The notes beneath the pieces were generated by a model, which was given only the letters and a program-made list of their open reading frames with translations, was not told the origin of the DNA and did no database searches. A DNA stretch of 20,000 nucleotides, from the IMG/VR virus record IMGVR_UViG_3300021431_000014; one strand, written 5' to 3'. How positions within the stretch are numbered: position 1 is the stretch's first letter; each line of letters starts with the position of its first letter. This stretch comes from an uncultured virus (IMG/VR IMGVR_UViG_3300021431_000014). Taxonomy: Duplodnaviria; Heunggongvirae; Uroviricota; Caudoviricetes. The translations under genes were made by a program, and so were the position numbers. Below, piece after piece: positions 8,652-20,000 of the stretch.

Positions 8652-8655
8652 AAAC

Positions 8656-8859
8656 ATGAAAATTGTAACATCGGTGACAATTTGGAACGATGCAATAGGC
8701 AAGCGCATCAGTATTACTTATTCGGAAATTGACCCGGAAACAGGTAAGATTATTGCTGATAACAAACGTATTGACAGAATTATTACAGATACATCGGCAA
8801 AGAAACTTGCAGATGATTTACAAGCATATGCTCAAACATTTGTTGATTCTATTGAATAA
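8656..8859 (+). CDS. Small hypothetical tail-associated protein (67 aa)
   Basis: ATG at 8656 lies just after the upstream stop with purine-rich AAAGGATGGTGG upstream; preferred to the 8620 start in the ORF track. MKIVTSVTIWNDAIGKRISITYSEID... looks like a compact beta-beta-alpha protein. Confidence 0.75.
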   Translation: MKIVTSVTIWNDAIGKRISITYSEIDPETGKIIADNKRIDRIITDTSAKKLADDLQAYAQTFVDSIE

Positions 8860-8871
8860 AGGAGGGCTTAT

Positions 8872-11800
8872 ATGGCTATCCAACATAGACGAGGTAATTA
8901 TAGTGACTTCGACCCATCAAAAACAGTAGCAGGAGAATTTAATGTTGTTCAAAACGGTGACCCAATAGCATCTGATGGAGAAGCTGTATATATAGCTTTC
9001 CAAACAGGAAAAGTAAAACGATTAGCAACGTATGATGAATTGCAGGATTATAATCAACGTTCTGAACAACTGTTAGAACAAGTAACAGAAAAGGCTACGG
9101 CAGTTAATCAGAATTATCAAAATACCGTAACTAAAGCAAATGAAGCGAGTCAATCTGCTACTGATGCGGCAACTGCAAAAACAGCAGCCGAGAAAGCAAA
9201 AACTGATACACAAGCATTATTAGATAATGCACAAACAACTATACAAGAATATACTGATGATGCAAAAGCTGATTTACAAACAGCCGTTGACGAGGCTGAT
9301 ACTCATATAACACAAAGTAAAGAATCTGCTATAGCCGATATTGATGCTGAATATCAAGATAGAAAAGCTGAAATAGATGCTAAGATAGACCAAATTATTG
9401 CAGTAAAAACTTCAGCCGAAGAAATAGCAACTGAAGCCAAAAATAAAGCAGATGGTTTGGAATTGGATGTTGCTGAATTAGCAGGCAAAACTTCTAATCT
9501 TACTACCAAAGTGAATAATTTACAATTCGATATGGATAGTAGTATTCACGGTTGGTATGTGGATATGCAGAAACGTCTTATCTTTACTGACGTTGACGGT
9601 AATCCCATCGGCGAACCTATTGAAGGTATCGGCGGCGGTGGCGGAGGTGGGGGCGGCGGTTCTTCCACTAACGCTGAAATGTCAGCACAAAATACTACAG
9701 GTTGGATTAGTAAAAGTATATCAGCCGGTGATTCAATCAGTGTAAAGATTTTATGGTCATCTATTGAAAATGATTTACCTACAGGCAACGGTGTTGTAAC
9801 GATTAAAGTTAATAACTTAACAAGAGCAACATTTGAAGTTCCGCAAGGTGAGTTGACACTAAATCTTACTGAATATTTATCTGCGGGGACTAACAATGTA
9901 AAGATAAGTGTAGCAGATATTTACGACCAGATAAGAACATTAGGCTTCAATATATCTGTATTAGACTTACGTATTACTTCAACATTTGACCCGTCAACAG
10001 TATTTGAAGGTGCTATATCTGTACCTGTTACTCCTTACGGCGATGTTGAAAAAATATTGTATTGGGAACTTGACGGCACAGTTATTCACACTCAGAATAC
10101 AAGCGCATCCGGCAGACAGATTACATATACTATTCCGGCACAAAGTCATGGAGCACATAAATTAAGATTATATTTTGAAGCAACCGTTAATAATCAAACT
10201 GTACGTTCCAATGTTTTATATTATGAGTTTATATCTCTTGAAACATTAAATAACACACCGATTATTATTAGTCCGTTTAATACAACTGAAGTTAGTCAGT
10301 TTACTATCGTTAATATACCGGCCACTGTCTATGACCCGCCAAACGCTACAACTACTGTTACAACATTTATAAATGATGTGCAGGCAGATAGATTCTCCGG
10401 TGTTGACAGAACAGAACATGTATATACTGTTAAAGCAAATGAAGTCGGTACATTAAAATTTGAAATTGCTTGCGGAAAAGTTAAAAAGACGTTCACATTA
10501 AATGTAGTAGAATCTGAAATTCACGTAGAACCGGAAACTGATAATCTTGTATTATACTTATCTTCTTATGATAAGAGTAATGATAGAGAAGATAGAAATG
10601 AGTGGAAATACGAAGATATTACAACTACATTTACAGGTAATAACTATGTAACAGACGGTTGGATAGCTGATAATGAAGGTTTTGTAGCACGAAGATTTTC
10701 CGGTGATGCGAGAGGAACAATAAACCTTGAATTGTTCAAAAACGATTTTCGTAGAACAGGTAAAACTATTACTATTGAGTTTGCCGCAAGAGATGTATTA
10801 AATTATGATACACCTATTATTTCTTGTATGAGCGGAGGTATAGGATTATCTATTACTCCTCAACGGGCTACATTGATGTCAGAACAATCTTCGTTAAGTA
10901 CCCAGTATAAAGAAGATGAACATATAAGACTTGATTGGGTTATTGAGAAACGAAACGAACACAGAATAGGTCAAATGTATATTAATGGAATTTGTTGCGG
11001 AGCTATTCAGTATCCGGACGATGATGCGTTTTCACAAGCATCTCCCGTAAATATAAGTTTAGGTTCAAGTGATTGTGTACTGGATTTGTATTGTGTAAGA
11101 GTTTACGATAATAACTTATCCAGAATACAGGTTCTTAATAACTGGATTGCAGATACACCGGACGGCAATACAATGTTGAGAAGATATCAACACAATGATA
11201 TTTATGATGCATACGGTAATATTGTTATTTCTAAGCTCCCGAAAGACTTACCGTATTTAATTCTCGAAGGGCCGGAATTACCGCAGTCTAAAGGGGATAA
11301 AAAAACTATGTCGGGTAGTTATACTGACCCAATGTATCCGTCAAGGTCATTTACATTTATAAATGCCCAAGTAGATGTACAGGGTACTTCTTCACAGTAT
11401 TATCCGAGAAAAAATTATAAAGTTAAATTTAAAGGCGGATTCATTCTTCCAAACGGTTCCACAGTAAGCACTTATGCTATAAATAATGATGCTATTCCTA
11501 CAAATACATTTACGTTTAAAAAGGACTTTGCATCAAGTGAAGGTTGTAATAACGTTGAATTAGTAAGAACGTATGACGTTGTTTGTCCATACAAGACTCC
11601 GGGTCAGAAGTCAAATCCGAAAGTTAGACAGGGTATTGACGGTTTCCCGATTGTTATTTTCTGGCGAGATACTACAACTGATACAGTAAAGTTTGTCGGC
11701 AAATATAATTTCAATAATGATAAGGGTACACCGGAAGTATTTGGATTTGTTGAAGATGATGAGTCTTGGGAAATCAAGAATAACACAGGTAATCGTGTTA

Positions 11801-12243
11801 TTTGGAAAGATAATAATTATGCAGGTACAGCATGGCTCAATGACTTTGAAGCACGTTATCCGGATACTGACCCGCCGTATGAAAATCCTGCCCAGTTACA
11901 AGAATTTGCAACATGGGCTATGACAACTGATACAACAGCGGCAACAGGAAACACATTGTCGGAACCGGTAACTTATCGTGTAAAAACTACCGAAATTGTA
12001 GAACATATTGACCCGAATACAGGAGCAATTTCTTATGAAGAGGTAGAAGTAACAAAAGACGTTACATTTACTACAGACACAGCCGAATATAGACTTGCTA
12101 AGTTTAAAGACGAAGCAAGTAATTATATGGAAATGGATTCGGCGTTATTCTATTATTTATTCACTGAATTATTCTTAATGGTAGATAATAGAGCAAAGAA
12201 CGCATTTCCGTCATTTATAGGGGAGGCAGTGGTTACGGAATGA
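8872..12243 (+). CDS. Large tail fibre/adhesin part 1: Mtd_N-like anchor, coiled coil, Gly10 hinge, beta-sandwich/LamG-like domains, N-terminal part of a CotH-like kinase domain
   Basis: RBS AAGGAGGG; 'MAIQHRRG...AGEF' resembles fibre anchor N-termini; Ala/Gln/Lys heptads to about aa 220; 10 Gly at 9631-9660; 'QMYINGI...ISLGSSDCVLDLYCVRVYDNNLS' is LamG-like; 'VQGTSSQYYPRKNYKVKF', 'GKYNFN' and 'VDNRAKN' are CotH-like motifs. Confidence 0.75.
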   Translation: MAIQHRRGNYSDFDPSKTVAGEFNVVQNGDPIASDGEAVYIAFQTGKVKRLATYDELQDYNQRSEQLLEQVTEKATAVNQNYQNTVTKANEASQSATDAATAKTAAEKAKTDTQALLDNAQTTIQEYTDDAKADLQTAVDEADTHITQSKESAIADIDAEYQDRKAEIDAKIDQIIAVKTSAEEIATEAKNKADGLELDVAELAGKTSNLTTKVNNLQFDMDSSIHGWYVDMQKRLIFTDVDGNPIGEPIEGIGGGGGGGGGGSSTNAEMSAQNTTGWISKSISAGDSISVKILWSSIENDLPTGNGVVTIKVNNLTRATFEVPQGELTLNLTEYLSAGTNNVKISVADIYDQIRTLGFNISVLDLRITSTFDPSTVFEGAISVPVTPYGDVEKILYWELDGTVIHTQNTSASGRQITYTIPAQSHGAHKLRLYFEATVNNQTVRSNVLYYEFISLETLNNTPIIISPFNTTEVSQFTIVNIPATVYDPPNATTTVTTFINDVQADRFSGVDRTEHVYTVKANEVGTLKFEIACGKVKKTFTLNVVESEIHVEPETDNLVLYLSSYDKSNDREDRNEWKYEDITTTFTGNNYVTDGWIADNEGFVARRFSGDARGTINLELFKNDFRRTGKTITIEFAARDVLNYDTPIISCMSGGIGLSITPQRATLMSEQSSLSTQYKEDEHIRLDWVIEKRNEHRIGQMYINGICCGAIQYPDDDAFSQASPVNISLGSSDCVLDLYCVRVYDNNLSRIQVLNNWIADTPDGNTMLRRYQHNDIYDAYGNIVISKLPKDLPYLILEGPELPQSKGDKKTMSGSYTDPMYPSRSFTFINAQVDVQGTSSQYYPRKNYKVKFKGGFILPNGSTVSTYAINNDAIPTNTFTFKKDFASSEGCNNVELVRTYDVVCPYKTPGQKSNPKVRQGIDGFPIVIFWRDTTTDTVKFVGKYNFNNDKGTPEVFGFVEDDESWEIKNNTGNRVIWKDNNYAGTAWLNDFEARYPDTDPPYENPAQLQEFATWAMTTDTTAATGNTLSEPVTYRVKTTEIVEHIDPNTGAISYEEVEVTKDVTFTTDTAEYRLAKFKDEASNYMEMDSALFYYLFTELFLMVDNRAKNAFPSFIGEAVVTE
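9631..9660 (+). repeat. Poly-glycine (GGN)10 hinge
   Basis: ggcggcggtggcggaggtgggggcggcggt, in frame, between the coiled coil and the globular domains. Confidence 0.9.
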
Positions 12244-15200
12244 GTATAAAGAAAAAAATTGTTTGGTTGCCATATGATATGGATACTGCAATCGGTATTA
12301 ACAATGAAGGTGAGTTGGTGTTCAGCTATGAATTAGAGGACACCGACCACCTCGCCGGTGGTGCAGACGTATATAACGGACAAGATTCTGTAATATGGAA
12401 TAATATTAGGATGGCATTTGCAGATGAATTACGTAATATGTATCAAAAATTACGTTCAGAAGGTAAATTATCCTATGAAACTGTAGAAAAAGCATTTGAA
12501 GAACATCAAGCTAAATGGCCAGAAGCATTATTTAATGAAGATTCACAATTCTGTTATATTGACCCACTTATTTATGATAATAAAAACTATCTTGAAATGT
12601 TACAAGGCAGTAAAGAAGAACAACGTAAATGGTGGTTATATAATCGTTTTAGATACATTGACAGTAAGTATAATGCAGGCGATGCGTTATCTGATTTAAT
12701 TCAGTTACGTTCATATGCAAAATCCAATATTACTATTACACCATATGCAGATATTTATCCTACTGTTAAGTTCGGTTCTTATCTTGTATCAAAACGAGGT
12801 AAAAGAAACGTTGCCACATTACTTGAGTGTCCTGTCGATGCTTTGAATGATACCGAAACATATATCTATAGTGCGTCACAGCTTGCAAGTGTTGGAGATT
12901 TAAGTGGTTTAAAAGTTGGATTTGCAGACTTTTCAATGGCTGTTAAATTGCAATCTCTTAAATTAGGTGATAGTTCTTCAAACTATGAAAATCCAAATTT
13001 AAAAGTTCTTACACTCGGTAATAATATATTACTGCAAACACTTGATGTTAGAAATTGCTCGGCATTAGGTAGCGGCGATATGAAAGTTGTTGACATATCC
13101 GGATGTACAGGAATAAGAAAAGTGTGGTTTACAGGAACACAGATAACCGGTTTAACATTACCAATCGGCGGCGTATTAGATGAGTTAGCTTTACCTGCTA
13201 CAATGACTAATATAACAGTTAGGAATCAGCCGAGACTTACATCTTTTACATTTACAGGAAACAGTTATTCTGCTGTAGGTACTTGTAGAATTGAGAACAC
13301 AGATTATTTTTTAAAGAACCAATCTTGGTTTAATCAGATATTAAAATCACAAGAATCGGGCGGATTAAAACAGGGATGTAGATTAAGACTTGTAGGACTG
13401 GATATTAATTGGTTAGCCGATACAGATGCTATATCAGATTTTTATGCTTTATTTACCGGTGAAGGTAGATTTAGAGGACTTGATATAACAGGTGGTGAAC
13501 AAGATACTCCATATCTTGATGGCACAATTCATATTAATTCTGCAAAAGGCTCAGAAATAGCAAGATTAAAACAAATATTTCCGTATGTAAATATCGAAGC
13601 CGAACACACAGAATCTTATATCTACTATTATAATGGTAGTACACTTGTTTATACTGAAAAGGTATTAGACGGTGGTAACGGAACATATGCAGGAACCCCG
13701 ACAAAAGCATCGGATGCTCAGTATACTTATACATTTGCAGGGTGGTCAAAAGATGATGACAATACAGTTGATAGTGATGCTTTAAATAACATTGTTGCTG
13801 ACAGAAACGTTTATGCTTGCTTCACAAGTACCTTACGTAAGTACAATGTTACATTTGTTAAAGCAAGTGCAGACGGCGGCGGCACATTACAGACTATTCA
13901 AAATGTTAACTACGGCACTGTAATCACAGCAGCAAATGCTTACACAGGTGCTACACCTACAACATCGCAAGGTAGCGCAGAGGATTATCCGTTTGAAGGA
14001 TGGAGTCCTGCAAGTGCTACGGTGACTGGTAATACTACCTTCACGGCGATGTTTGGTAGTCCTGTTGAAGTGGTTGAGATTACGGATTCGTGGGATACGA
14101 TTATTGCTAACATTGATAATGGGACTTATAAGACGATATATAAAGTCGGGAATTATAAAGCAATCAGTTTAGGCTCCAATTATCAAACAGCATACGCACA
14201 GATAGTTGGCTTTGATGCAGATACAGACCGCGCAGGAAATACTATACCAATTTCATTTACATTAAAAAATGTAATCAAAAAATCAGACGATACCAATTAC
14301 CAGTTGTATTTTGATAAAAATGATAATGACTGGGAATCGTCTTACATCAGAACGCAACTGAATACCACACTTTTCGATTTGTTAACAATAAACAATACAT
14401 TTGGGAACAGAATTACAGCCGCCCAGAAATACACATATAATTTGCCAAACGATATAGAAACAATGTCGATTGATTCGCTGTGGCTTTTAAGTATGCGAGA
14501 ATTTTGGGGAGGATCCACATTTGCGGAGCATAGTGGTCCGACATATAAGTTACGAGAGAACTGGATAGAAAATAATTCATATGGCTGTTTTAGAACAACG
14601 GGTCCATATCAGGGTAGTTGTTATTTTAACAACGGAAACTCATTCAGTTATTCCAGCAAGAGAAATGATGAACTCGTTAATTTTGGCTTCTGCCTCGGCC
14701 TCGAACCCGAAACCATCACAGACGATTGGCCAACCATCCTTGCCAACGAGAACTATGCTACGGATTATAGCATCGGCGATACCAAATATCTCGACCTCGG
14801 TACAGAGGGCAAACAGCTTATGGAAATCGTGGCGTTTGATACGGATGACAGAGCGGACGGACAGGGTAAGGCTGGGATTACGTGGATAAGTAAAGGGTTG
14901 TTGTATACTCCTATGCCTATGAATGCCACTCAAAAAACTGTAGATGGTGAAACCCTTGCAACGGCGGGAGGTTGGTTACATTCAGACATGAGAGCGTATT
15001 TGAAGAATACAATCAAACCACTTATTCCTGAGACTGTTAGAAATGCTATTGTGTCTGTTACTAAAGTGCAATCCATTTATACAAATGGGGAAAGAGTTGC
15101 CAACGGTCAAACAACAACGGATGACGTTTGGATTCCATCCGCCTATGAAATATTTGATGTCACAACTTATGAAAGTACAGGCGCTACGTATACCGGCGTA

Positions 15201-15371
15201 TTCAAAGATGCAGATTCACGAATTAAGAAACGTAAAGGTGTTAATGATATGTGGTGGCTGCGTTCTGTAAGCGGTAATCGCAGTTTTCGTGATGTTACTG
15301 GTGCCGGAATTAATAATTACCGTGAAGCTACTTCAACCGTATATATCGCCCTCGGTTTCTGCACCAATTAA
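12240..15371 (+). CDS. Large tail fibre/adhesin part 2: C-terminal part of CotH-like kinase, LRR-like region, two InlB B-repeat-like units, two DUF6273-like domains
   Basis: ATGA overlap with the previous gene; begins 'WLPYDMDTAIG' (CotH DxD motif); 'LQTLDVRNCSAL...VDISGCTGIRKV' is LRR-like; 'PTKASDAQYTYTFAGWS' and 'YPFEGWSP' are B-repeat-like; two ITDxW...GFC units, the last with WWLRS. Confidence 0.78.
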   Translation: MSIKKKIVWLPYDMDTAIGINNEGELVFSYELEDTDHLAGGADVYNGQDSVIWNNIRMAFADELRNMYQKLRSEGKLSYETVEKAFEEHQAKWPEALFNEDSQFCYIDPLIYDNKNYLEMLQGSKEEQRKWWLYNRFRYIDSKYNAGDALSDLIQLRSYAKSNITITPYADIYPTVKFGSYLVSKRGKRNVATLLECPVDALNDTETYIYSASQLASVGDLSGLKVGFADFSMAVKLQSLKLGDSSSNYENPNLKVLTLGNNILLQTLDVRNCSALGSGDMKVVDISGCTGIRKVWFTGTQITGLTLPIGGVLDELALPATMTNITVRNQPRLTSFTFTGNSYSAVGTCRIENTDYFLKNQSWFNQILKSQESGGLKQGCRLRLVGLDINWLADTDAISDFYALFTGEGRFRGLDITGGEQDTPYLDGTIHINSAKGSEIARLKQIFPYVNIEAEHTESYIYYYNGSTLVYTEKVLDGGNGTYAGTPTKASDAQYTYTFAGWSKDDDNTVDSDALNNIVADRNVYACFTSTLRKYNVTFVKASADGGGTLQTIQNVNYGTVITAANAYTGATPTTSQGSAEDYPFEGWSPASATVTGNTTFTAMFGSPVEVVEITDSWDTIIANIDNGTYKTIYKVGNYKAISLGSNYQTAYAQIVGFDADTDRAGNTIPISFTLKNVIKKSDDTNYQLYFDKNDNDWESSYIRTQLNTTLFDLLTINNTFGNRITAAQKYTYNLPNDIETMSIDSLWLLSMREFWGGSTFAEHSGPTYKLRENWIENNSYGCFRTTGPYQGSCYFNNGNSFSYSSKRNDELVNFGFCLGLEPETITDDWPTILANENYATDYSIGDTKYLDLGTEGKQLMEIVAFDTDDRADGQGKAGITWISKGLLYTPMPMNATQKTVDGETLATAGGWLHSDMRAYLKNTIKPLIPETVRNAIVSVTKVQSIYTNGERVANGQTTTDDVWIPSAYEIFDVTTYESTGATYTGVFKDADSRIKKRKGVNDMWWLRSVSGNRSFRDVTGAGINNYREATSTVYIALGFCTN
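14076..15371 (+). repeat. Tandem diverged duplication of a DUF6273-like domain (14076-14696 and 14709-15368)
   Basis: EITDSWDTII..YKVGNYK..QIVGFDAD..W..SYIR..L..DSLWLLSMRE..FGFC aligns by eye with ETITDDWPTIL..YSIGDTK..EIVAFDTD..W..SDMR..L..DDVWIPSAYE..LGFC. Confidence 0.85.
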
Positions 15372-15400
15372 TCATAGTAACTCGTAAACCCCGCACCACA

Positions 15401-15428
15401 GAAGGAGGTATAACCTTGTACTCCCTTC
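15401..15428 (+). terminator. Imperfect hairpin after the tail operon (possible terminator)
   Basis: GAAGGAGGTATAA-CC-TTGTACTCCCTTC, imperfect inverted repeat; followed by an A-rich rather than T-rich tract, so it may act mainly on the minus strand. Confidence 0.4.
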
Positions 15429-15437
15429 AAATAAAAA

Positions 15438-15466
15438 TTTACAATTAAACCCAACTATGTTATACT
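15438..15466 (+). promoter_or_regulatory. Sigma-A-type promoter with extended -10
   Basis: TTTACA (15438-15443), 17 nt spacer, TATACT (15461-15466) preceded by TGn; A-rich tract upstream; 32 nt before the ATG at 15499. Confidence 0.7.
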
Positions 15467-15498
15467 TATAACAAATAAAAACGAAAGAGGTATCTACT

Positions 15499-15765
15499 AT
15501 GTCCTACATTCCCTATGCTATATCATTTCTATCTTTATTGCTTGCCGCTTATACGTTTTTAAGCAAGAATAATAAAGAAAATACATCTGAGTTAACAACT
15601 GTAATTGTTAAGTTGGAGAACATAGGCAACGGAATTTCTGACATTAAAAAAGAAATAGCAAGCATGAAAGATGACCAAAAAGAAGACCATGACAGACTTA
15701 TAAAAGTCGAAACGTCTTTAGCATCTTTATGGAAACAGTTTAATAACGAGATTAAGAAGGAATGA
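15499..15765 (+). CDS. Small single-TM plus coiled-coil protein (holin / XhlA-like)
   Basis: 88 aa; N-terminal hydrophobic helix IPYAISFLSLLLAAYTFL then heptads ending 'HDRLIKVETS'; RBS GAAAGAGGT; position after the tail fibres. Confidence 0.65.
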   Translation: MSYIPYAISFLSLLLAAYTFLSKNNKENTSELTTVIVKLENIGNGISDIKKEIASMKDDQKEDHDRLIKVETSLASLWKQFNNEIKKE

Positions 15766-15769
15766 AGAT

Positions 15770-15979
15770 GTGCAAATCTATGATTTTACAGAACCGGAAT
15801 TAGATAAGTTTAGGGAATTGTGTAACTTTTCTGATGATGAATTAGAGTATCTAAATATAAAAGCAAAGCGCAAAACAAACATACAAATAGCTATGCAAAT
15901 GCACGTGAGTGAAGCACAAGTATCAAAGTTAGCAAAGCGTGTAAGAAATAAAATAATAAGAGTTCTTCCTTATTTATAA
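15770..15979 (+). CDS. Stand-alone LuxR/GerE-type helix-turn-helix protein
   Basis: 69 aa, GTG start; 'FSDDELEYLNIKAKRKTNIQIAMQMHVSEAQVSKLAKRVRNKI' fits the LT.rE..vl.....G.sn.eIA..l.vS..TV......i..Kl pattern; no receiver domain. Confidence 0.75.
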   Translation: MQIYDFTEPELDKFRELCNFSDDELEYLNIKAKRKTNIQIAMQMHVSEAQVSKLAKRVRNKIIRVLPYL

Positions 15980-15998
15980 AGAATCATATAATTTTCGT

Positions 15999-16031
15999 AA
16001 AGAAGTCGTACAAGTGTACGGCTTCTTTTTT
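15999..16031 (+). terminator. Intrinsic terminator-like inverted repeat (possibly also an operator)
   Basis: AAAGAAGTCGTAC-AAGT-GTACGGCTTCTTT, 13 bp stem with one G-U pair, ending in a T6 run. Confidence 0.75.
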
Positions 16032-16067
16032 GTTTACAATAAAATAAAAAGACAGGAGGTACATAAT

Positions 16068-16247
16068 ATGCAAGACATTGGAGTAGCGTTAACAACTATT
16101 ATGCAGGCTAAACAGTGTTCGCCTATTTGTGCCTTCTTTTTGTTATCAGAAAAGCAGAAAGAGGGTGACATAAATGGGATTCATAAATTACAACCCGAAC
16201 CCGAAAAGAAAGTTAGTAGGAGATTGTGTAATAAGAGCAATTTCTAA
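16068..16247 (+). CDS. Small hypothetical protein (59 aa), first ORF of the cassette
   Basis: Near-perfect RBS AGGAGGT (16054-16060) 7 nt before ATG 16068; overlaps the next gene by 74 nt, which lowers confidence in its 3' half. Confidence 0.55.
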   Translation: MQDIGVALTTIMQAKQCSPICAFFLLSEKQKEGDINGIHKLQPEPEKKVSRRLCNKSNF

Positions 16248-16554
16248 AACGATGAATCGAGATTGGGAAGATACATATATAGACATTATGTTGCAGGGAT
16301 TTTCTATGCACGATATGCCGTCCTCTAATAACGTATGGGGAACATATTTAGCACAACACGGATTTAAAAGATATGTCATTCCCGATACTTGTCCCGATTG
16401 TTATACAGTTAATCAATTTGTCACGGACAATCCCGATTTAACAGGAATATTAGCTACAGGAACGCATGTTATAGCTATAGGTGACGGGAATTATTACGAT
16501 ACGTGGGATAGCGGAAATGAAATTCCGATTTATTACTGGCGAAAGGAGATGTAA
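16174..16554 (+). CDS. Hypothetical protein, putative papain-fold (C39-like) Cys-His-Asp enzyme
   Basis: 126 aa, RBS GAGGGTG; 'GDCVIRAIS' (Cys at helix start), 'THVIAI' (His on strand) and 'YYDTWDS' (Asp) occur in papain-like order. Confidence 0.6.
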   Translation: MGFINYNPNPKRKLVGDCVIRAISKTMNRDWEDTYIDIMLQGFSMHDMPSSNNVWGTYLAQHGFKRYVIPDTCPDCYTVNQFVTDNPDLTGILATGTHVIAIGDGNYYDTWDSGNEIPIYYWRKEM

Positions 16555-16556
16555 CG

Positions 16557-16991
16557 ATGGCATACAATAACGGATTTCCTATGACATATCAACAGATGTA
16601 TCCGCAATATGTTGCTTCGTCATTTCAGCCGCAAATGACACAACAGCAACCTCAAATGATGCAACAACCTGTTAGTGATAACGGCATTTTATGGGTACAG
16701 GGTGAAGCAGGAGCAAAGTCATGGGCAGTAGCTCCCGGTAAAAGTGTAATGCTTATGGATAGTGAGTCAAATACTTTTTACATTAAATCATCTGACCAAA
16801 GCGGTATGCCGATGCCGTTAAGAATATTTGATTATACAGAAAGAAACTCCCAACAGCCAACACAACCTCAAGTAGTACAACATCAAGAAATTGATACATC
16901 ACAGTTTGTTACATGGGATGCATTGGATGAAAGATTAAATGAGATGCTTGCAGTTAAAAAAGAGCATAGAAGGGAGAAAATAGATGGCTAG
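16557..16991 (+). CDS. Hypothetical protein with Gln/Pro/Met-rich low-complexity arms and a small beta-rich core
   Basis: 144 aa, RBS AAAGGAG; core 'ILWVQGEAGAKSWAVAPGKSVMLMDSESNTFYIKSSDQSGMP'. Confidence 0.85.
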   Translation: MAYNNGFPMTYQQMYPQYVASSFQPQMTQQQPQMMQQPVSDNGILWVQGEAGAKSWAVAPGKSVMLMDSESNTFYIKSSDQSGMPMPLRIFDYTERNSQQPTQPQVVQHQEIDTSQFVTWDALDERLNEMLAVKKEHRREKIDG

Positions 16992-17214
16992 TTCAGTATT
17001 TAATTCATTGGGAAATAAATCTCCAAAACTACCCGGACCGTTCGGAAATATGCAGGAAATGATGAGTAAACTAAATCAGTTTAAACAATCTTTTCAAGGT
17101 GACCCGAAACAGCAGGTTCAACAGCTTCTTAATTCCGGGCGTATGTCACAAGAACAATATAATAGGCTTTCTCAAATGGCAACACAAATTCAAAATATGC
17201 TTACTAAACAGTGA
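16984..17214 (+). CDS. Small Gln/Met-rich helical hypothetical protein
   Basis: 76 aa, 8 nt overlap with the previous gene, RBS AAGGGAG; 'GDPKQQVQQLLNSGRMSQEQYNRL'. Confidence 0.85.
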   Translation: MASSVFNSLGNKSPKLPGPFGNMQEMMSKLNQFKQSFQGDPKQQVQQLLNSGRMSQEQYNRLSQMATQIQNMLTKQ

Positions 17215-17241
17215 TACATAAATCTGGCCGGATTTTAGTAT
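17214..17241. promoter_or_regulatory. Intergenic dyad / stem-loop upstream of the 308 aa gene
   Basis: ATAC-AT-AAATCT-GGCC-GGATTT-TA-GTAT imperfect inverted repeat in the only sizeable intergenic gap inside the cassette. Confidence 0.45.
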
Positions 17242-17270
17242 AAATAACTTTACGAAAGGAGTTAAAGACA

Positions 17271-18197
17271 ATGGCTTTAACAGAAGAGAACGGAGGTAAC
17301 GGTATGATTATGCCAGTAGCACCTATGTACGGTGGCGGCGGTTCCGGCTTTGGCGGCTGGGGCGGTGACGGCGGATGGTGGATTATTCTGCTTTTCCTGT
17401 TCGCTCTTGGCGGCGGCTGGGGTAACGGCTTCGGTGGTGGCATGGGAGGCTTTGCGGCTGACGGTGCAGTTATTTATCCTTGGATGAACCAGTCGAATCA
17501 GATTAATGAAGGTTTCCGTGACCAGATGATTAACGATAATGTTACATCTATTAGGGACGGAGTTACCGGAATTGCAACACAGCTTTGCAACGGGTTTGGT
17601 GATGTACAGCAGTCCTTATGCAATGGTTTCGCAGGAGTTAATGCAACAGTTAATGCTGGATTTGCTAACGCAGAAACGGCTAACAATGCTCGTCAGATGG
17701 CGAACATGCAACAGGCGTTCGCTATGCAAACTGCTATGGGACAGGGATTTAATCAACTTGGCACTCAGTTTGCCGATTGTTGCTGTGAAAACAGACTTGG
17801 TTTAGCAGACCTTAAATATACTGTGGCTACAGAGAACTGTGCCGACAGAACCCAGTCTATGCAGAACACGAGGGACATTATTGATAGTCAGTCTCGCGGT
17901 ACCCAGGCGATTCTGGATAAATTATGTCAGCTTGAACTGGATGGTGTCAAGGCTCAGGTTGAAGCAAAGAATGATAGAATTTCTGAGCTTCAGACTCAGC
18001 TTAACATGGCTAATCTGGCTGCTTCGCAGACCGCTCAGAACGCTCTTATTCAGAACGGTTTTGCAAACGAGGTTGATGCTCTGTATAACAGACTCAATAG
18101 TTGTCCGGTTCCCACTACTCCTGTTTACGGAAGGACTCCTATCTTTACTTGCCCGCAGAATCAGACTTCTTGCGGATGCGGTTGCGGTAGCTTCTAA
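17271..18197 (+). CDS. Hypothetical protein: Gly/Trp-rich N-terminus around a hydrophobic segment, Asn/Gln/Ala-rich coiled coil, Cys clusters
   Basis: 308 aa, RBS GAAAGGAG; 'GGWGGDGGWWIILLFLFALGGGWGNGFGGG', 'DCCCENR', heptad stretch 'LDKLCQLELDGVKAQVEAKNDRISELQTQL', C-terminal 'SCGCGCGSF'. Confidence 0.9.
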   Translation: MALTEENGGNGMIMPVAPMYGGGGSGFGGWGGDGGWWIILLFLFALGGGWGNGFGGGMGGFAADGAVIYPWMNQSNQINEGFRDQMINDNVTSIRDGVTGIATQLCNGFGDVQQSLCNGFAGVNATVNAGFANAETANNARQMANMQQAFAMQTAMGQGFNQLGTQFADCCCENRLGLADLKYTVATENCADRTQSMQNTRDIIDSQSRGTQAILDKLCQLELDGVKAQVEAKNDRISELQTQLNMANLAASQTAQNALIQNGFANEVDALYNRLNSCPVPTTPVYGRTPIFTCPQNQTSCGCGCGSF

Positions 18198-18208
18198 GGA
18201 GGTGCGAT

Positions 18209-18664
18209 ATGGCGGCAGAATATTTAGCAAATCCTATTCAAGAAGTAGCACTTAATGCTCCTATCTTGTTTAATGCTTCTATTCCTTGTAATCGTGGTTA
18301 TATTTATCACGAAGACGAAACAGGAATTTTTATTCTCCGTGGTATCACTAACGGACAGTGCTTTGCTACTTATCAAGTGACCTTCAACGGGAATATTGCT
18401 ATTCCCGAAGAGGGCACTGTCACACCAATCGCAGTGGCAATAACTGTAAACGGTGAACCTAGAGTAACGAGTAGAGCAATATTTACACCTGCGGCTGTTG
18501 ATGAATACGGTAATGTAACAAGTACCGCAATCATTAAAGTGCTGAAAGGTTGTTGCTTCTCCATTGCAGTGGAACATGTTGCGGCTACTACAGACCCGAC
18601 AGTAACCACGGCACCGATTATCAATGTCCAGAACGCAAATCTGGTCATTAATAGAATAGCGTAA
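18209..18664 (+). CDS. All-beta hypothetical protein, BclA C-terminal / C1q-TNF jelly-roll-like
   Basis: 151 aa, RBS TAAGGAGGT; alternating beta strands 'GIFILRG', 'YQVTFNGNI', 'IAVAITVNGEP', 'NVTSTAIIKV', and terminal 'NANLVINRIA' resembling the BclA-CTD ending (ASxxIxKxA). Confidence 0.6.
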   Translation: MAAEYLANPIQEVALNAPILFNASIPCNRGYIYHEDETGIFILRGITNGQCFATYQVTFNGNIAIPEEGTVTPIAVAITVNGEPRVTSRAIFTPAAVDEYGNVTSTAIIKVLKGCCFSIAVEHVAATTDPTVTTAPIINVQNANLVINRIA

Positions 18665-18680
18665 GAAAGGAGGTATAGTC

Positions 18681-19397
18681 ATGGATAAACATTATGAAGC
18701 AGTCAAAGAAATTCTTGAAGACCAGATTAAAAAGATTGTTAAGAAAGGTGACATATCTCCGCAGGAACTTGATAATCTGTATAAAGCATCTGCCATTTGC
18801 CTTGACTTTGAGACAAAGGACGCTATGAAGAAAGCTGAAGAACAGCAGAAACAGGGCGGTCAGTCTATGAACAGCTACAATATGAATAACCGTAGAGGTG
18901 CTTATAATATGGACGGTGGTAATTCCAATCATTACCCGTGGTTTATGTATGCCGGTGACGGTACGTATGATTTCGGTAATAGAGGAAATTCTTACGGTCC
19001 TGTTTGGAATCAAGAAATGGAGAATAAATCTTTGCACGAAGTACATTCGCAGGATTCTATGCGTTCCACTAGAAGGGGCGTAGACGGAACCGGCAGAGAT
19101 AATTCTTATAATCGTTCTTATGAAGGTGCTTACGACGGAGCATATGACGGTGCTTATGACGGAAGTTACGAAGGTAGTTATGACGGCTCGTATGACGCTA
19201 ACGATAATTCCTATCGTAGAGGTCGTGACCAGAGAACAGGTAGATATGTAAGTCGTGATAACAATAACAGAGGTTATAGTCGTGCAATGGACAAACAGCG
19301 CATGATAGGTAAACTCGAAGACATGATGGATGATGCTCCGTCTGAAAAAGAACGGCGCACATTACAGCAGTGTGTTGACAAACTGGAAAGACAGTAA
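18681..19397 (+). CDS. Hypothetical protein with helical ends and a Tyr/Gly/Asp/Arg/Asn low-complexity centre
   Basis: 238 aa, RBS AAAGGAGGT; (Y-D/E-G-A/S)n repeat followed by 'RRGRDQRTGRYVSRD'. Confidence 0.88.
   Translation: MDKHYEAVKEILEDQIKKIVKKGDISPQELDNLYKASAICLDFETKDAMKKAEEQQKQGGQSMNSYNMNNRRGAYNMDGGNSNHYPWFMYAGDGTYDFGNRGNSYGPVWNQEMENKSLHEVHSQDSMRSTRRGVDGTGRDNSYNRSYEGAYDGAYDGAYDGSYEGSYDGSYDANDNSYRRGRDQRTGRYVSRDNNNRGYSRAMDKQRMIGKLEDMMDDAPSEKERRTLQQCVDKLERQ
19119..19202 (+). repeat. 12 bp in-frame tandem repeat x7 (YEGA YDGA YDGA YDGS YEGS YDGS YDAN)
   Basis: tatgaaggtgct tacgacggagca tatgacggtgct tatgacggaagt tacgaaggtagt tatgacggctcg tatgacgctaac. Confidence 0.92.
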
Positions 19398-19402
19398 TTT
19401 AT

Positions 19403-19430
19403 AGGGAGGGTTATTGCCCTCCCTTATTTA
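19403..19430 (+). terminator. GC-rich hairpin, probable (leaky) intrinsic terminator
   Basis: AGGGAGGGT-TATT-GCCCTCCCT followed by TATTTA, 5 nt after the stop at 19397. Confidence 0.7.
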
Positions 19431-19454
19431 AGTATATAAATAAGGAGGTAAATC

Positions 19455-19802
19455 ATGGATATAAACACAATAAACAATTTAATAAAGGACACAGAAAACA
19501 GTGAAACGACCTTATCTAATATACGAAACTTATCAGCCTTGTACAATGTGAGAAACATACTACTTAATAATAAAGAAGAAACACGAACAGAAACAGAATT
19601 AAAAGATATTTTACCTTCTTATTTAGGATACATAAACATAAAACGAAAATATCAACTGCATAAAACGACAAACGACAATGTAATCATAGCTATGAAAGCC
19701 CTATGTACCGAGATAAAAGAATTTATACAAACGCTATACAGTTCAACAGATACACCTCAAGAGCGAGATATAATAAAAGAGATGATAAAAGAGATGCCGT
19801 AA
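19455..19802 (+). CDS. Helical hypothetical protein (115 aa)
   Basis: RBS TAAGGAGGT; AT-rich ORF; 'IRNLSALYNVRN' and 'LCTEIKEFIQTLYSSTDTPQERDIIK'. Confidence 0.85.
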   Translation: MDINTINNLIKDTENSETTLSNIRNLSALYNVRNILLNNKEETRTETELKDILPSYLGYINIKRKYQLHKTTNDNVIIAMKALCTEIKEFIQTLYSSTDTPQERDIIKEMIKEMP

Positions 19803-19821
19803 GGTATCTCTTATTTTTTTT
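19789..19821 (+). terminator. Intrinsic terminator overlapping the stop codon
   Basis: AAGAGATGCC-GTAA-GGTATCTCTT (GNRA loop containing the TAA stop) followed by A and T8. Confidence 0.85.
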
Positions 19822-19832
19822 CAAAAAAAGTG

Positions 19833-19861
19833 TTGACATATATATAAAGATGTAGTATAAT
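19833..19861 (+). promoter_or_regulatory. Consensus sigma-A/sigma-70 promoter
   Basis: TTGACA (19833-19838), 17 nt spacer, TATAAT (19856-19861), with T8/A7 tracts upstream (UP-element-like). Confidence 0.92.
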
Positions 19862-19891
19862 GTTCTTAGTAAGATACGAAAGGGGATAAAT

Positions 19892-20000
19892 ATGAAGCGA
19901 CAGAATTTATGGACGATTGCTGATTGCACCAGAATCATCAAAGAAAATAAGGATAACACAAATTACTTTAATCGTAGTATAACACAGGATGATATGTGGG
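19892..20000 (+). CDS. 5' part of a hypothetical protein (runs off the window)
   Basis: RBS GAAAGGGGA, ATG 19892, open to the end: MKRQNLWTIADCTRIIKENKDNTNYFNRSITQDDMW; directly downstream of the consensus promoter; absent from the ORF track. Confidence 0.7.
   Translation, partial: MKRQNLWTIADCTRIIKENKDNTNYFNRSITQDDMW

Follow-up and report, generated by a model that had tools for sequence, protein, structure and literature searches.

In the window, the whole 20,000-nucleotide stretch of DNA from an uncultured rumen phage that was analysed, ten plus-strand ORFs are tightly packed 3' of the tail genes, at positions 15499-19802. An AGGAGG-like Shine-Dalgarno sequence lies 5-10 nt 5' of every start, and neighboring genes either overlap or are spaced by 4 to 57 nt. 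The first-pass annotation had described a self-contained cassette here; all of the ORFs that it listed are present where it placed them, and a 59 aa ORF at 16068-16247 is additional. The features of the cassette are as follows.

15438..15466, + strand: promoter-like site TTTACA-17-TATACT with a TG extension (10/12 positions), 5' of the first gene
15499..15765, + strand: 88 aa protein, N-terminal hydrophobic helix and then a charged helical part; peripheral and lineage-specific
15770..15979, + strand: 69 aa HTH protein, like GerE/LuxR or sigma-70 region 4
15999..16028, + strand: terminator-like hairpin, 13 pairs and a T run (dG -17.3 kcal/mol, z -5.3; 0/200 shuffles fold as well)
16068..16247, + strand: 59 aa ORF with a strong RBS, overlapping the 5' end of the 126 aa gene out of frame
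16174..16554, + strand: 126 aa protein with a predicted papain-like (clan CA) cysteine-peptidase fold; core member
16557..16991, + strand: 144 aa protein, Q/P/Y-rich N-terminus, ~50-residue beta-rich core and C-terminal helix; type-A member
16984..17214, + strand: 76 aa Q-rich helical protein with the motif GDPxQQ(I/V)QQLLNSG; type-A member
17271..18197, + strand: 308 aa signature (rod) protein, phrog_16490
18209..18664, + strand: 151 aa stand-alone protein, predicted TNF/C1q-like jelly roll of BclA-CTD/ExsFA type; core member
18681..19397, + strand: 238 aa protein, terminal helices and a Tyr/Gly/Asp/Arg low-complexity middle with YDG repeats; core member
19403..19423, + strand: GC-rich hairpin with a weak T tail, 3' of the 238 aa gene (dG -17.6, z -3.2; 1/200 shuffles as good)
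19455..19802, + strand: 115 aa protein, helical; probable relative of the type-B 238-like protein (C-terminal half)
19789..19812, + strand: terminator-like hairpin with a T run at the cassette end (scan match; dG -15.0, z -4.8)

The compositions reported earlier match the sequences: glutamine content is 14% in the 144 aa product and 18% in the 76 aa product, Gly accounts for 14% of the 308 aa protein, which also has 12 Cys, and Y, G, D and R are abundant in the 238 aa protein. Composition is strongly biased in 5/10 products. On reading the sequences, we saw no signal-peptide-like start among the cassette proteins. Family and profile searches assigned none of the genes to a named virion, lysis or replication family, in agreement with the earlier claim that none resembles an ordinary protein of these classes, and a literature search found no paper on the cassette.

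The cassette had also been credited with its own promoter and terminators. The promoter-like site and both of the proposed hairpins are present; however, the region holds 18 promoter-like sites compared with 15.9 ± 4.0 in shuffled sequences, which is not above expectation, so the site at 15438..15466 is a consensus match only. The hairpin at 19403-19423 was missed by our terminator scan because it lacks a good T run. The hairpin at 15999-16028, absent from the first-pass list, divides the first two genes from the remaining cassette. It is conservation across loci, and not these motifs, that places the unit beyond chance, and sequence comparison confirms the cassette as a real conserved unit.

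Distribution of the cassette among phages

We used tblastn to search 81 loci that carry the 308 aa protein and 80 further loci from genome collections. The 126 aa protein was identified in 74/81 and 64/80 of these loci, respectively, and the 151 aa protein in 73/81 and 61/80; the 144 aa protein (54/81 and 38/80) and the 76 aa protein (49/81 and 22/80) follow. Counts were lower for the 115 aa protein (14/81 and 5/80), for the 69 aa HTH protein located 5' of the 126 aa gene (11/81 and 10/80) and for the 88 aa protein (4/81 and 1/80). In about 160 phage loci, four families (126, 308, 151 and 238-like) are linked in one of two gene orders; the second order (type B, about 25 loci) runs 308, 151-like, 67 aa, 238-like and 126-like. 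These counts and the two orders bear out the claim of a conserved, co-occurring cassette, for which the first-pass annotation had named non-co-occurrence as the refuting result. Its statement that similar cassettes recur as hypothetical proteins in gut phages was also correct, and the 308 aa family alone comprises 2033 cluster representatives at E ≤ 1e-3.

The cassette resides in the late region of unrelated siphophages. It lies directly 3' of holin and endolysin genes in three relatives (L084, L101 and L120) and 3' of the endolysin gene in the cultured Butyrivibrio phage Ceridwen; in two others (L137 and L113) it is flanked by the gene for the minor head protein and by the scaffold/capsid genes, and some relatives have a lysin-like gene far from the cassette. 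The suggestion that it stands where a lysis module is expected is therefore not upheld, given relatives in which it follows holin and endolysin or in which a lysin-like gene is distant. Anti-restriction genes lie 3' of the cassette in L101. Many phages with the same tail module lack the cassette within 7-10 kb downstream, and in one relative (L183) it is deleted. Most of the binned hosts of cassette phages are Clostridia. Judged from these comparisons, the cassette is a very common, optional and portable phage accessory module; it is neither a lysis module nor spore-tied. Only a lytic cycle has been seen for Ceridwen, which infects Butyrivibrio fibrisolvens (PMC7372960), and the term "mass spectrometry" has 0 occurrences in that paper, which contains no virion proteomics.

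Contigs from RNA libraries (4 runs, 2 studies) that are identical to the window fall mostly on 15.2-19.8 kb and cover the cassette better than the tail genes, although these contigs are assemblies and DNA carry-over is possible. One contig of 2095 nt spans 17671-19765. Depth peaks over the genes for the 308, 151 and 238 aa proteins, but assembled contigs cannot rank genes.

Family matches and predicted folds of the products

The 126 aa protein matched phrog_3754 (E 2.1e-26), and it had no sequence match in Pfam or the PDB and no match to a transglutaminase family. Within an alignment of 39 family members, D17, C18, R21, H98 and D109 are invariant. AF2 gave a model with a pLDDT of 93.4, and all 50 structural matches listed for it are papain-like enzymes; the best among the matches listed is the C39 domain of PCAT1 (Z 7.0, rmsd 3.7, 105 aligned), and others include Josephin (Z 6.9), YopQ (6.8), AvrPphB (6.4), PeiR and OspI. 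Based on this model, the 126 aa protein is assigned a papain-like cysteine-peptidase fold with invariant Cys18/His98/Asp109, as the earlier description of a Cys-His-Asp protein anticipated. It is similarly small and carries the same Cys/His/Asp set as peptidase C39 domains (PCAT1, ComA), Josephin and staphopain; however, its Z scores against C39 domains are <8 and tied with those of unrelated clan CA enzymes, and the cassette, unlike C39 bacteriocin ABC transporter systems, contains no transporter. In the 308 aa protein, the putative leader has prolines and, as we take it, departs from the usual double-glycine pattern. The 126 aa family is also found alone, without other cassette genes, in the early regions of Bacillus Tsamsa-like phages, where it adjoins an ocr-like anti-restriction gene, and in Geobacillus phage GBK2; Lak megaphages were matched too. 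Because the family exists outside the cassette, the 126 aa protein need not be a dedicated maturase.

The 151 aa protein matched phrog_20016 (E 7.1e-30). Its AF2 model (pLDDT 87.8) was aligned by Foldseek to the C-terminal domain of F-BclA in the PDB (9h38; E 1.6e-7, TM 0.67-0.72), with further matches to BxpB (8d02), ExsFA (7r1m) and BclA (1wck). The model thus predicts a TNF/C1q jelly-roll fold, nearest to those of F-BclA, BxpB/ExsFA and BclA, in keeping with the BclA-CTD-like protein proposed earlier. The type-B counterpart is homologous to it (hhalign 99.0%, E 7.5e-18). Within BFVD, the fold occurs in many stand-alone phage proteins of 130-145 aa, and collagen-like and pectate-lyase virion proteins carry it as their C-terminal head; it is also widespread among viruses that infect eukaryotes or hosts that form no spores.

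The 308 aa protein matched phrog_16490 (E 1.7e-37). Its alignment shows a conserved N-terminal motif, in which ~20 conserved residues end in Gly-Gly, and a near-invariant Cys/Pro-rich C-terminus ending CGCGCG; one conserved end is a Pro-rich extended motif, and the Gly-Gly could be a cleavage site. A Gly-rich region contains an 11-residue hydrophobic core, WWIILLFLFAL, flanked by Trp and Gly. This core is short (its Kyte-Doolittle mean peaks at 1.43 for a span of 19 residues), with no K/R within 35 residues upstream in 37/40 sequences and none within 30 residues downstream in 35/40. The middle of the protein is a mosaic amphipathic-helical rod with Cys clusters; residues 75-262 have a helical periodicity peak at 98 degrees that was equalled by 4/500 shuffles. 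Two blocks within it are variable, and all 6 combinations of these occur; the central blocks recombine freely. The best 150 relatives are 111-367 aa long. The search for natural rod-knob fusions gave none: 3/2267 longer candidates matched the 151 aa protein, and all were single-member partial chimeras.

The 238 aa family is homologous to a type-B Y/G/R-rich protein of 147-170 aa (hhalign 96.9%, E 1.7e-10, N-terminal helix), and in this 238-like family a low-complexity stretch between helices retains invariant Tyr, Gly and Arg residues. The type-B 238-like protein aligned, over its C-terminal half, with the 115 aa protein (hhalign 85%, E 6e-6, 70 columns); the 115 aa protein did not match the type-A 238 aa family. 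The 144 aa protein (phrog_21718, E 1.2e-25) has a conserved core of ~50 residues and no match in the PDB or Pfam; homology to its look-alike in type-B cassettes was unsupported (hhalign probability 2.9%). The 76 aa protein matched phrog_22984 (E 1.1e-15).

Among the genes at the 5' end, the 88 aa protein matched phrog_1863 (E 6.2e-9), of unknown function, and TIGR04561 below the cut-off; a phrog_1863 protein also lies near the type-B cassette of L113. The 69 aa protein had been called a GerE/LuxR-type HTH, and the window protein itself is borderline, with 21.7 bits to PF00196 (E 1.6e-4) under a cut-off of 23.5 and matches to sigma-factor PHROGs at E about 2e-3; its L084 homologue, however, passes with 25.8 bits. 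It is a candidate regulator of the cassette in this lineage. The 59 aa ORF is conserved in 15 loci and matched no family in Pfam and PHROG searches. Over its first ~30 residues, encoded 5' of the 126 aa gene, substitutions are protein-like and gaps keep the frame, and the ORF is possibly a small gene or a translational leader.

Candidate functions of the cassette

Our best explanation, which we hold tentatively, is that the cassette is an optional, portable, late-made module that builds a rod-and-knob fibre with the aid of a peptidase and low-complexity helpers. The 308 aa protein would form an elongated helical stalk, held at one end via its N-terminal motif and the Gly/Trp-flanked hydrophobic segment; a hydrophobic core is, however, unusual in virion fibres, which counts against this reading. 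The 151 aa protein would trimerise and either cap the stalk, in the manner of the BclA C-terminal domain on its collagen stalk, or anchor one of the conserved Pro-rich stalk ends, as ExsFA/BxpB holds the BclA leader peptide. The 126 aa enzyme may trim or cross-link some component, and the Gln-rich and Tyr/Gly-rich proteins may be assembly helpers or matrix. The first-pass scheme, in which all products build a single structure with a trimeric 308 aa major subunit, the 151 aa protein as tip and the 126 aa protein as maturase, is likewise conjectural. Candidate destinations for the fibre are the virion head or tail, the cell membrane and debris, and by analogy with C1q-tipped fibrils its role might be adhesion or clustering. 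PMC12357932 describes inter-subunit clefts of the ExsF trimer that bind Pro-rich leader peptides and cleavage of the BclA leader on attachment, and PMC13111695 describes clustering mediated by C1q-tipped fibrils. Movement among phages with unrelated tail and head genes, the absences and the L183 deletion are awkward for a part that docks onto a particular virion.

We compared the cassette with spore appendages (PDB 1wck, 8d02, 7r1m, 9h38 and 9h3d; Pfam PF18573). The 151 aa protein shares the TNF/C1q jelly roll with BclA/ExsFA (BxpB) of the Bacillus exosporium hairy nap and with F-BclA/F-Anchor of F-type endospore appendages, and it resembles ExsFA/BxpB in standing alone at a length of about 150 aa. 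As for BclA, the product of the partner gene is long and fibrous and has a Pro-containing conserved terminal motif beside a Gly-rich region, and a protease-like gene accompanies the two, which may be set beside the leader cleavage noted above. Sequence similarity, in contrast, is almost nil, with 1/39 homologues of the 151 aa protein reaching PF18573 (E 7.6e-4). The cassette stalk is predicted to be alpha-helical whereas that of BclA is collagen, rod and knob are separate genes, the rod has a hydrophobic core and Cys clusters, and the genes are phage genes, occurring in Ceridwen.

Viral fibres with a trimeric beta-knob include PRD1 P5, the adenovirus fibre and the phi29 head fibre gp8.5, and the Sf6 needle knob is the nearest-cluster lead for this comparison. 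These fibres and the collagen-like, C1q-headed fibrils of giant viruses share the order of anchor, fibrous shaft and TNF-like head, and phi29-type head fibres are dispensable, as the cassette seems to be from its absences and the L183 deletion. However, beta-knob fibres are single polypeptides on a defined capsid or tail site, whereas the cassette has its head in a separate gene, includes a peptidase and low-complexity proteins of its own, and is passed among unrelated phages.

A membrane-associated late function, which we consider rather unlikely, would have the 308 aa protein anchored in the cytoplasmic membrane and acting with the 151 aa protein on the envelope as infection ends; examples of such roles are the timing or completion of lysis, superinfection exclusion, and keeping progeny from re-adsorbing to debris. 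The Trp/Gly-flanked core, the adjoining holin and endolysin genes in L084, L101, L120 and Ceridwen, and the membrane-type 88 aa protein that is first in the unit here are consistent with this. The arrangement of an anchor at the N-terminus, a helical rod and conserved cysteines may be likened to that of inner-membrane spanins such as lambda Rz, which share the holin/endolysin neighborhood in several loci; however, the 308 aa protein has no sequence match to spanins, is twice the size, and has neither an outer-membrane partner lipoprotein nor positive charges flanking its hydrophobic segment. The shortness of that segment and its few flanking Lys/Arg, contrary to the positive-inside rule, argue against membrane anchoring, as do the lack of matches to holin, spanin and endolysin families, the copies in head modules distant from lysis genes, and the lysin-like genes located elsewhere in relatives. 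The host of Ceridwen, the only cultured one, presumably has a single membrane and no outer membrane, which also counts against this reading.

Alternatively, the Gln-rich, Tyr/Gly/Arg-rich and Gly-rich proteins might condense into an intracellular or extracellular gel or coat that embeds or protects virions or organises assembly, with the 126 aa protein cross-linking it as a transglutaminase-like or processing enzyme. The composition bias in half of the products, the invariant Tyr, Gly and Arg of the helix-flanked 238-like region and, weakly, the RNA-contig peaks fit such a coat, and papain-like folds include transglutaminases and glutamine deamidases (PeiR and OspI being among the 126 aa matches). 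We nevertheless regard it as improbable: no member of the cassette matched a transglutaminase family, low complexity alone carries little information, and the conserved core of 308 and 151 aa proteins resembles discrete folded parts. We know of no such phage matrix structure.

A host-directed effector or counter-defence role, in which a host protein would be the target of cleavage or de-conjugation by the 126 aa peptidase, with the remaining products serving as cofactors or decoys, is in our judgment quite improbable. Deubiquitinase-type and effector proteases (Josephin, AvrPphB, YopQ) are among its structural neighbors, and anti-restriction genes occur both beside its stand-alone early homologues and 3' of the cassette in L101; however, both gene orders keep the peptidase together with the rod and knob genes, PADLOC gave no match, the cassette is located in late regions, and the 308 aa rod and TNF-like protein would be left unexplained.

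The first-pass proposal that the cassette modifies the host spore coat or exosporium, or builds a spore-like layer, draws on the BclA-, BxpB- and ExsFA-like fold, the GerE-type HTH, the Cys-rich and Tyr/Gly-rich proteins and the majority of Clostridia among hosts, but it is very unlikely, given that exosporium-leader and spore families were unmatched, that the cassette occurs in Ceridwen, seen only in a lytic cycle and infecting a host that we take to form no spores, and that the 151 aa fold is common in viruses whose hosts do not sporulate.

Layout of the cassette and its flanking genes

Using Pfam and PHROGs, we identified the initial 15.4 kb of the window as a plus-strand siphophage tail module that includes the following genes:

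Tail module, plus strand: Gp15-like protein (PF06854)
Tail module, plus strand: tape-measure protein, 1664 aa
Tail module, plus strand: DUF6711 protein
Tail module, plus strand: tail protein, 892 aa (phrog_6616, E 1.9e-174)
8872-12243 and 12240-15371, plus strand: two large proteins, 1123 aa and 1043 aa, the latter ending in DUF6273

The 1123 aa and 1043 aa distal tail proteins match portions of a single PHROG of 2494 positions (phrog_14959). Both are highly variable among relatives with the same proximal tail genes, as expected of host-recognition proteins.

The cassette consists of ten tightly spaced plus-strand ORFs within 15438-19812, each preceded by a strong Shine-Dalgarno sequence; three products are referred to here as the peptidase-fold protein (126 aa; 16174-16554), the rod (308 aa; 17271-18197), and the knob (151 aa; 18209-18664). 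The following signals and small ORF were located:

15438-15466, plus strand: promoter-like site preceding the ten ORFs
15999-16028, plus strand: terminator-like hairpin of 13 pairs, between the second gene and the remaining cassette
16068-16247, plus strand: 59 aa ORF with a strong RBS, overlapping the 126 aa gene's start in a different reading frame
19403, plus strand: stable hairpin without a good T run, based on folding
19789-19812, plus strand: terminator-like hairpin after the ten ORFs

The first-pass annotation, from which the hairpin at 15999-16028 and the 59 aa ORF are absent, had given the unit its own promoter (15438) and terminators (19403 and 19789). A promoter-like site and a terminator-like hairpin do occur at 15438 and 19789; promoter-like sites in the cassette region are no more numerous than in shuffles, and these signals are therefore consensus matches only. 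At 19403, the hairpin is stable but lacks the good T run of a terminator. The 59 aa ORF is retained in 15 related loci, and its portion upstream of the 126 aa gene has protein-like substitutions and in-frame gaps; it may be either a short gene in its own right or a translational leader that couples to the peptidase gene. Just past the cassette terminator, a perfect sigma-70 consensus (TTGACA-17-TATAAT; 19833-19861) precedes an ORF starting at 19892. The next recognisable gene after the cassette in close relatives encodes an SNF2 helicase, and the site looks like the start of the early or replication module. G+C content is 0.40-0.45 at window positions 7000-9000, 14000-15500, and 16500-19000 and 0.33-0.37 elsewhere in the window; within the cassette, the rise falls on the rod and knob genes, which are Gly/Ala-rich.

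Contigs identical to the window were found in four RNA-library runs from two studies. These runs were located using positions 11000-20000 only, and the figures given here come from 32 of the 57 pieces. One run, probably from the sample that gave the window, contains a 2095-nt contig over 17671-19765 at a depth of 11.8, and its tail-gene pieces, among those listed, are 260-332 nt long at depths of 2.9-3.4. For the other study's three runs, 7 of 8, 6 of 7, and 7 of 8 of the identical pieces listed lie within the cassette. These contigs give a weak hint that cassette transcription at least equals that of the adjacent tail genes, with the provisos that assembled contigs cannot rank genes, that DNA carry-over is possible, and that uncovered stretches of the tail region are no proof of silence. 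A contig in run X2 that joins position 8215 to 18481, with 24 letters between the two sides, was taken as an assembly chimera.

Predicted folds of the cassette products

Pfam, NCBIfam, and PHROGs assign no named function to any gene of the cassette. The products match no named family, with one exception, a borderline GerE / sigma region 4 helix-turn-helix (HTH) in the 69 aa protein; six match PHROGs of unknown function. The same three databases yielded no holin, spanin, or peptidoglycan-hydrolase family, and the NCBIfam scan of the cassette returned nothing useful. The earlier statement that no product resembles a standard virion, lysis, or replication protein thus holds as far as confident matches to ordinary lysis or other named families are concerned, and the genes also occur together in other genomes. 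PADLOC returned two weak matches to the 88 aa protein (E 0.0026 and 0.0082) and zero for the other nine products. PDB sequence searches using family profiles of the 126, 151, 308, and 144 aa proteins gave chance-level matches only, and Pfam scans of aligned homologues (39 of the 151 aa protein, 40 of the 144 aa protein) gave nothing consistent. On reading, the cassette products carry no N-terminal signal peptides. For the 69 aa protein, previously called a GerE/LuxR-type HTH, the HTH likeness was retained, but the window protein falls just under the gathering cut-off of PF00196 (21.7 versus 23.5 bits); its homologue in the related phage locus L084 scores 25.8 bits against the same cut-off. At the fold level, it may be an HTH of the GerE type or of the sigma region 4 type.

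AlphaFold2 predicted the knob with a pLDDT of 87.8, and the modeled fold is a TNF/C1q jelly roll. Foldseek gave this model 166 PDB matches at E≤1e-3, including the F-BclA C-terminal domain (9h38, E 1.6e-7, TM 0.67-0.72), BxpB (8d02, E 9.7e-7), ExsFA (7r1m, E 1.1e-6), an ExsF-peptide complex (9h3d, E 1.6e-6), and BclA (1wck, E 4.2e-6). The matches to F-BclA and BclA bear out the first-pass description of a BclA-CTD-like beta protein, with a sequence link that is almost nil. The predicted jelly roll is that of the BclA_C / C1q-TNF superfamily (PF18573, PF00386); the window's 151 aa protein matches neither profile at E≤1, one of 39 homologues matches PF18573 (E 7.6e-4), and PDB sequence searches returned no match. 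In the ESM Atlas, the knob falls in its own viral clusters, and the nearest named clusters are BclA_C, C1q, and the Sf6 knob at 0.89-0.91, which we treat as a lead only. BclA-type proteins carry the head on a GXY collagen-like stalk within one polypeptide; the knob stands alone, as do ExsFA/BxpB-type anchors, which are TNF-like proteins of ~150 aa.

Longer proteins containing the 151 aa domain numbered 3 of 2267 candidates, all single-member and covering 46-70% of the query. In these (P0001, P0002, and P0003), part of the 151 aa protein is joined to the rod, a tail-type protein, or an integrase, and the junction in the rod-knob joined database protein lies at a shared Asn-Gly. These partial joins are probably assembly or recombination chimeras, and we found no natural rod-knob fusion among the 2267 longer candidates or the top 150 relatives of the 308 aa protein.

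In the 126 aa protein, Asp17, Cys18, Arg21, His98, and Asp109 are invariant across an alignment of 39 sequences, and its AlphaFold2 model has a pLDDT of 93.4. Foldseek searches of the PDB with this model returned nothing at E≤1e-3, and the weak matches were cysteine peptidases. In a structure search of 48,161 chains, all 50 of the matches listed were papain-like enzymes; the best among them was the PCAT1 C39 domain (Z 7.0, rmsd 3.7, 105 aligned), tied with Josephin-2, ComA (Z 6.8), and staphopain C, and the LahT-type structure 6mpz also had a Z of 6.8. The model supports a papain-like fold, with the subfamily beyond reach at Z <8. What had been annotated as a Cys-His-Asp protein is accordingly a good description, given the invariant Cys18, His98, and Asp109 and the papain-like structural matches. 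At the fold level, the protein shares with peptidase C39 a papain-like fold with the catalytic Cys and His; it has no Pfam family at E≤0.1 and no PDB sequence match, and it stands alone, with no ABC transporter found in the window.

The rod begins with a conserved motif (MALTDE..MVMPVAPMYGG), contains a Gly-rich stretch enclosing an 11-residue hydrophobic core, and ends in a nearly invariant C-terminus (CPVPTTPVYGRTPIFTC...CGCGCG). About 190 residues have amphipathic-helix periodicity with a peak at 98 degrees, which 4 of 500 shuffles reach; thus, the protein encoded beside the knob gene is helical, and GXY repeats are absent from it. The rod is a mosaic with two variable blocks, for which all six combinations were seen among 40 sequences. 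ESM Atlas placed it in its own viral clusters only. A control-free complex prediction with three copies of rod residues 199-308 and three knobs gave ipSAE values of 0.00 and 0.02, which count neither for nor against a contact. A scan of 1.84 billion cluster representatives recovered 2033 representatives of 50%-identity clusters for the rod family at E≤1e-3, 964 at E≤1e-10, and 317 at E≤1e-30, and 308 aa relatives are abundant in rumen and gut phage catalogues.

Co-occurrence, gene order, and dispensability

An IMG/VR scan with the 308 aa protein identified 390 relatives. We used tblastn to search the best 80 of these 390 loci together with Ceridwen, a cultured lytic Butyrivibrio phage that carries the cassette; the counts obtained are lower bounds, as contig ends cut many loci. 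Loci with a hit, out of these 81, numbered 74 for the 126 aa protein, 73 for the 151 aa protein, 54 for the 144 aa protein, 49 for the 76 aa protein, 20 for the 238 aa protein, 14 for the 115 aa protein, 11 for the 69 aa protein, and 4 for the 88 aa protein, and gene order in most is identical to that of the window. The cassette therefore behaves as the co-occurring unit that had been proposed. For the best 80 of 159 matches in a species-genome collection, the corresponding counts were 64, 61, 38, 22, 21, 5, 10, and 1. These 80 hits are all metagenome bins, labeled mostly as Clostridia and in some cases as Bacteroidales, Proteobacteria, or Spirochaetes, although such host labels are unreliable, since phage-sized contigs are easily mis-binned.

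A second gene order (type-B, as opposed to type-A in the window) was found in ~25 loci, and it runs from a Q/N-rich protein through the rod and a 151-like protein to a helical protein of 67 aa, which is followed by a protein rich in Tyr, Gly, and Arg and lastly by a 126-like protein. Based on hhalign, the type-A and type-B knobs are homologous (99.0%, E 7.5e-18), as are the two 238-like proteins (96.9%, E 1.7e-10), and the 115 aa protein probably shares ancestry with the type-B 238-like protein, in the C-terminal half of the latter (85%). Two other candidate homologies gained no support: that of the 144 aa family with a similarly built type-B protein (2.9%) and that of the 115 aa family with the type-A 238 aa family (2.5%). 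The two gene orders and the profile homologies together define a core of peptidase, rod, knob, and Tyr/Gly-rich protein, and the HTH, the 59 aa ORF, and the 88 aa protein are confined to the window's lineage.

The position of the cassette varies among relatives. In three related loci (L084, L101, and L120), it lies after holin and endolysin genes and before replication or anti-restriction genes, and in Ceridwen, whose cassette proteins are QHJ73765-QHJ73770, it is downstream of the endolysin and two small genes. In the related loci L113 and L137, a type-B cassette has the minor head protein gene on one side and the scaffold/capsid genes on the other, with GT2 glycosyltransferases adjacent. The window's closest relatives, two of which are complete at 71-73 kb and have terminal repeats, have the cassette between tail genes and the SNF2 helicase, with no lysin in between. 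Lysin-like genes are sited elsewhere in the related genomes G003 and G005 and on the cassette-bearing G004 contig; the lysin-like ORF of ~450 aa has a CHAP domain in the case of G003, a complete genome of 71 kb, whereas those of G005 and the L085 contig have Amidase_2, and searches of relatives for Amidase_3 and GH25 found none. Because lysin genes are either adjacent or elsewhere, the cassette is no substitute for an endolysin, and the earlier placement of the unit where a lysis module is expected does not fit the relatives.

To recover relatives of the tail module, we used an alignment-based scan, as a single-protein tail query gave only a near-identical fragment. Among 40 loci with the window's tail module, the cassette is present in five, and a sixth ends just past the HTH gene; many (L170 and the L188-L204 group) lack it entirely over the 7-10 kb downstream, and several contigs are too short to judge. 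In L183, a clean deletion of 3.3 kb begins within the HTH gene and ends within the 238 aa gene, taking out the peptidase, rod, and knob genes; as this is a single contig, it is read with caution. Comparison of L183 (11881-12160) with the related locus L177 (16867-20209) shows the truncated HTH gene fused to the 3'-terminal ~36 codons of the 238 aa gene. The absence from tail-module relatives and this deletion indicate that the cassette is optional and mobile. In L084, a tyrosine integrase gene (4497-5507) is flanked by tail-type genes and the holin and lies shortly upstream of the cassette; thus, at least some cassette-bearing phages are temperate.

Candidate roles of the cassette

Among known systems, the nearest are the BclA/ExsFA nap with the F-ENA tip/anchor, viral fibres with TNF-like knobs, and C39-type minimal peptidases. 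The cassette has folds and layout in common with these systems but differs from them in sequence and architecture; none of them unites, as it does, separate rod and knob genes, a Cys-rich helical rod that has a hydrophobic core, a peptidase of its own, low-complexity partners, and portability as a single block. We found no paper describing the cassette in the literature covered, which lies outside subscription journals.

The conserved gene set occupies late regions, and the leading reading, if short of an even chance, is that rod and knob form a fibre. The knob trimer would either cap the rod or grip one Pro-rich rod end, the peptidase would trim or cross-link some cassette component, and the low-complexity proteins would assist assembly. 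One study describes ExsF trimer clefts that hold the Pro-rich exosporium leader, as well as trimming of the BclA leader (PMC12357932); another describes clustering mediated by Firmicutes C1q-tipped fibrils (PMC13111695). Based on structure matches, the TNF/C1q-like fold in viruses is typically the head of virion fibres, and given this and the clustering by C1q-tipped fibrils, adhesion would be the most natural role of the cassette. In a fuller and unlikely version, the cassette would be a portable phage counterpart of the exosporium hairy nap: a peptidase-trimmed rod, its Pro-rich end locked in TNF-like trimer clefts, would form adhesive hairs on virions or lysis debris by which progeny would aggregate or attach to host cells or gut plant fibre, as a self-contained kit that any tailed phage could acquire. 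Glycosylation of such a fibre, as in BclA, is conceivable. Family-2 glycosyltransferases follow the type-B cassettes at 10640-13732 in L113, where a homing-endonuclease-like gene follows as well, and at 10771-11892 in L137.

Several points count against the fibre reading: natural rod-knob fusions were not found, a module that moves between phages and can be dispensed with is hard to reconcile with docking on a specific virion, and the rod's hydrophobic core is odd for a virion fibre. A membrane-linked late function, to which that core might contribute, is unlikely; the core is not a typical membrane anchor, with a maximum Kyte-Doolittle mean of 1.43 (19 residues) and with no Lys/Arg among the 35 residues preceding it in 37 of 40 sequences or among the 30 residues following it in 35 of 40. 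A condensate or matrix is improbable. Such a structure could draw on the low-complexity products, namely the 76 aa protein (Q-rich, with the conserved motif GDPxQQIQQLLNSG), the 238 aa protein (a helix at either end of a Tyr/Gly/Asp/Arg low-complexity middle), and the 144 aa protein; an alignment of the last revealed a conserved beta-rich core after its Q/P/Y-rich N-terminus.

Slightly less probable still is a host-directed protease module. Homologues of the 126 aa protein with 30-38% identity occur in three other phage groups, two of them with these records:

9509-9904 of the record: Bacillus phage Tsamsa (L082), rod and knob genes not alongside
26471-26860: Geobacillus phage GBK2 (L083), rod and knob genes not alongside

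Lak megaphage records also match, by tblastn only. The occurrence of the peptidase family alone in Bacillus and Geobacillus phages, with the rest of the cassette not beside it in these records, is a further point against the fibre reading. The homologues in Tsamsa-like phages lie near an ocr-like anti-restriction gene. A spore-modifying version is very improbable, despite the BclA-like knob: the 308 aa protein has no match to the NCBIfam exosporium leader (TIGR03720) at E≤0.05, and Ceridwen's host, Butyrivibrio fibrisolvens, is not known to sporulate.

If the cassette makes adhesive fibres, as the fibre reading would have it, then it bears on how gut phages find hosts or persist, and phages would be using the C1q-tipped fibre principle of spore surfaces in modular form. 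An optional cassette that is apparently well transcribed in rumen samples, on weak evidence, suits a fitness factor for the animal rather than the flask. A cultured pair carrying the cassette exists in phage Ceridwen and Butyrivibrio fibrisolvens DSM 3071.
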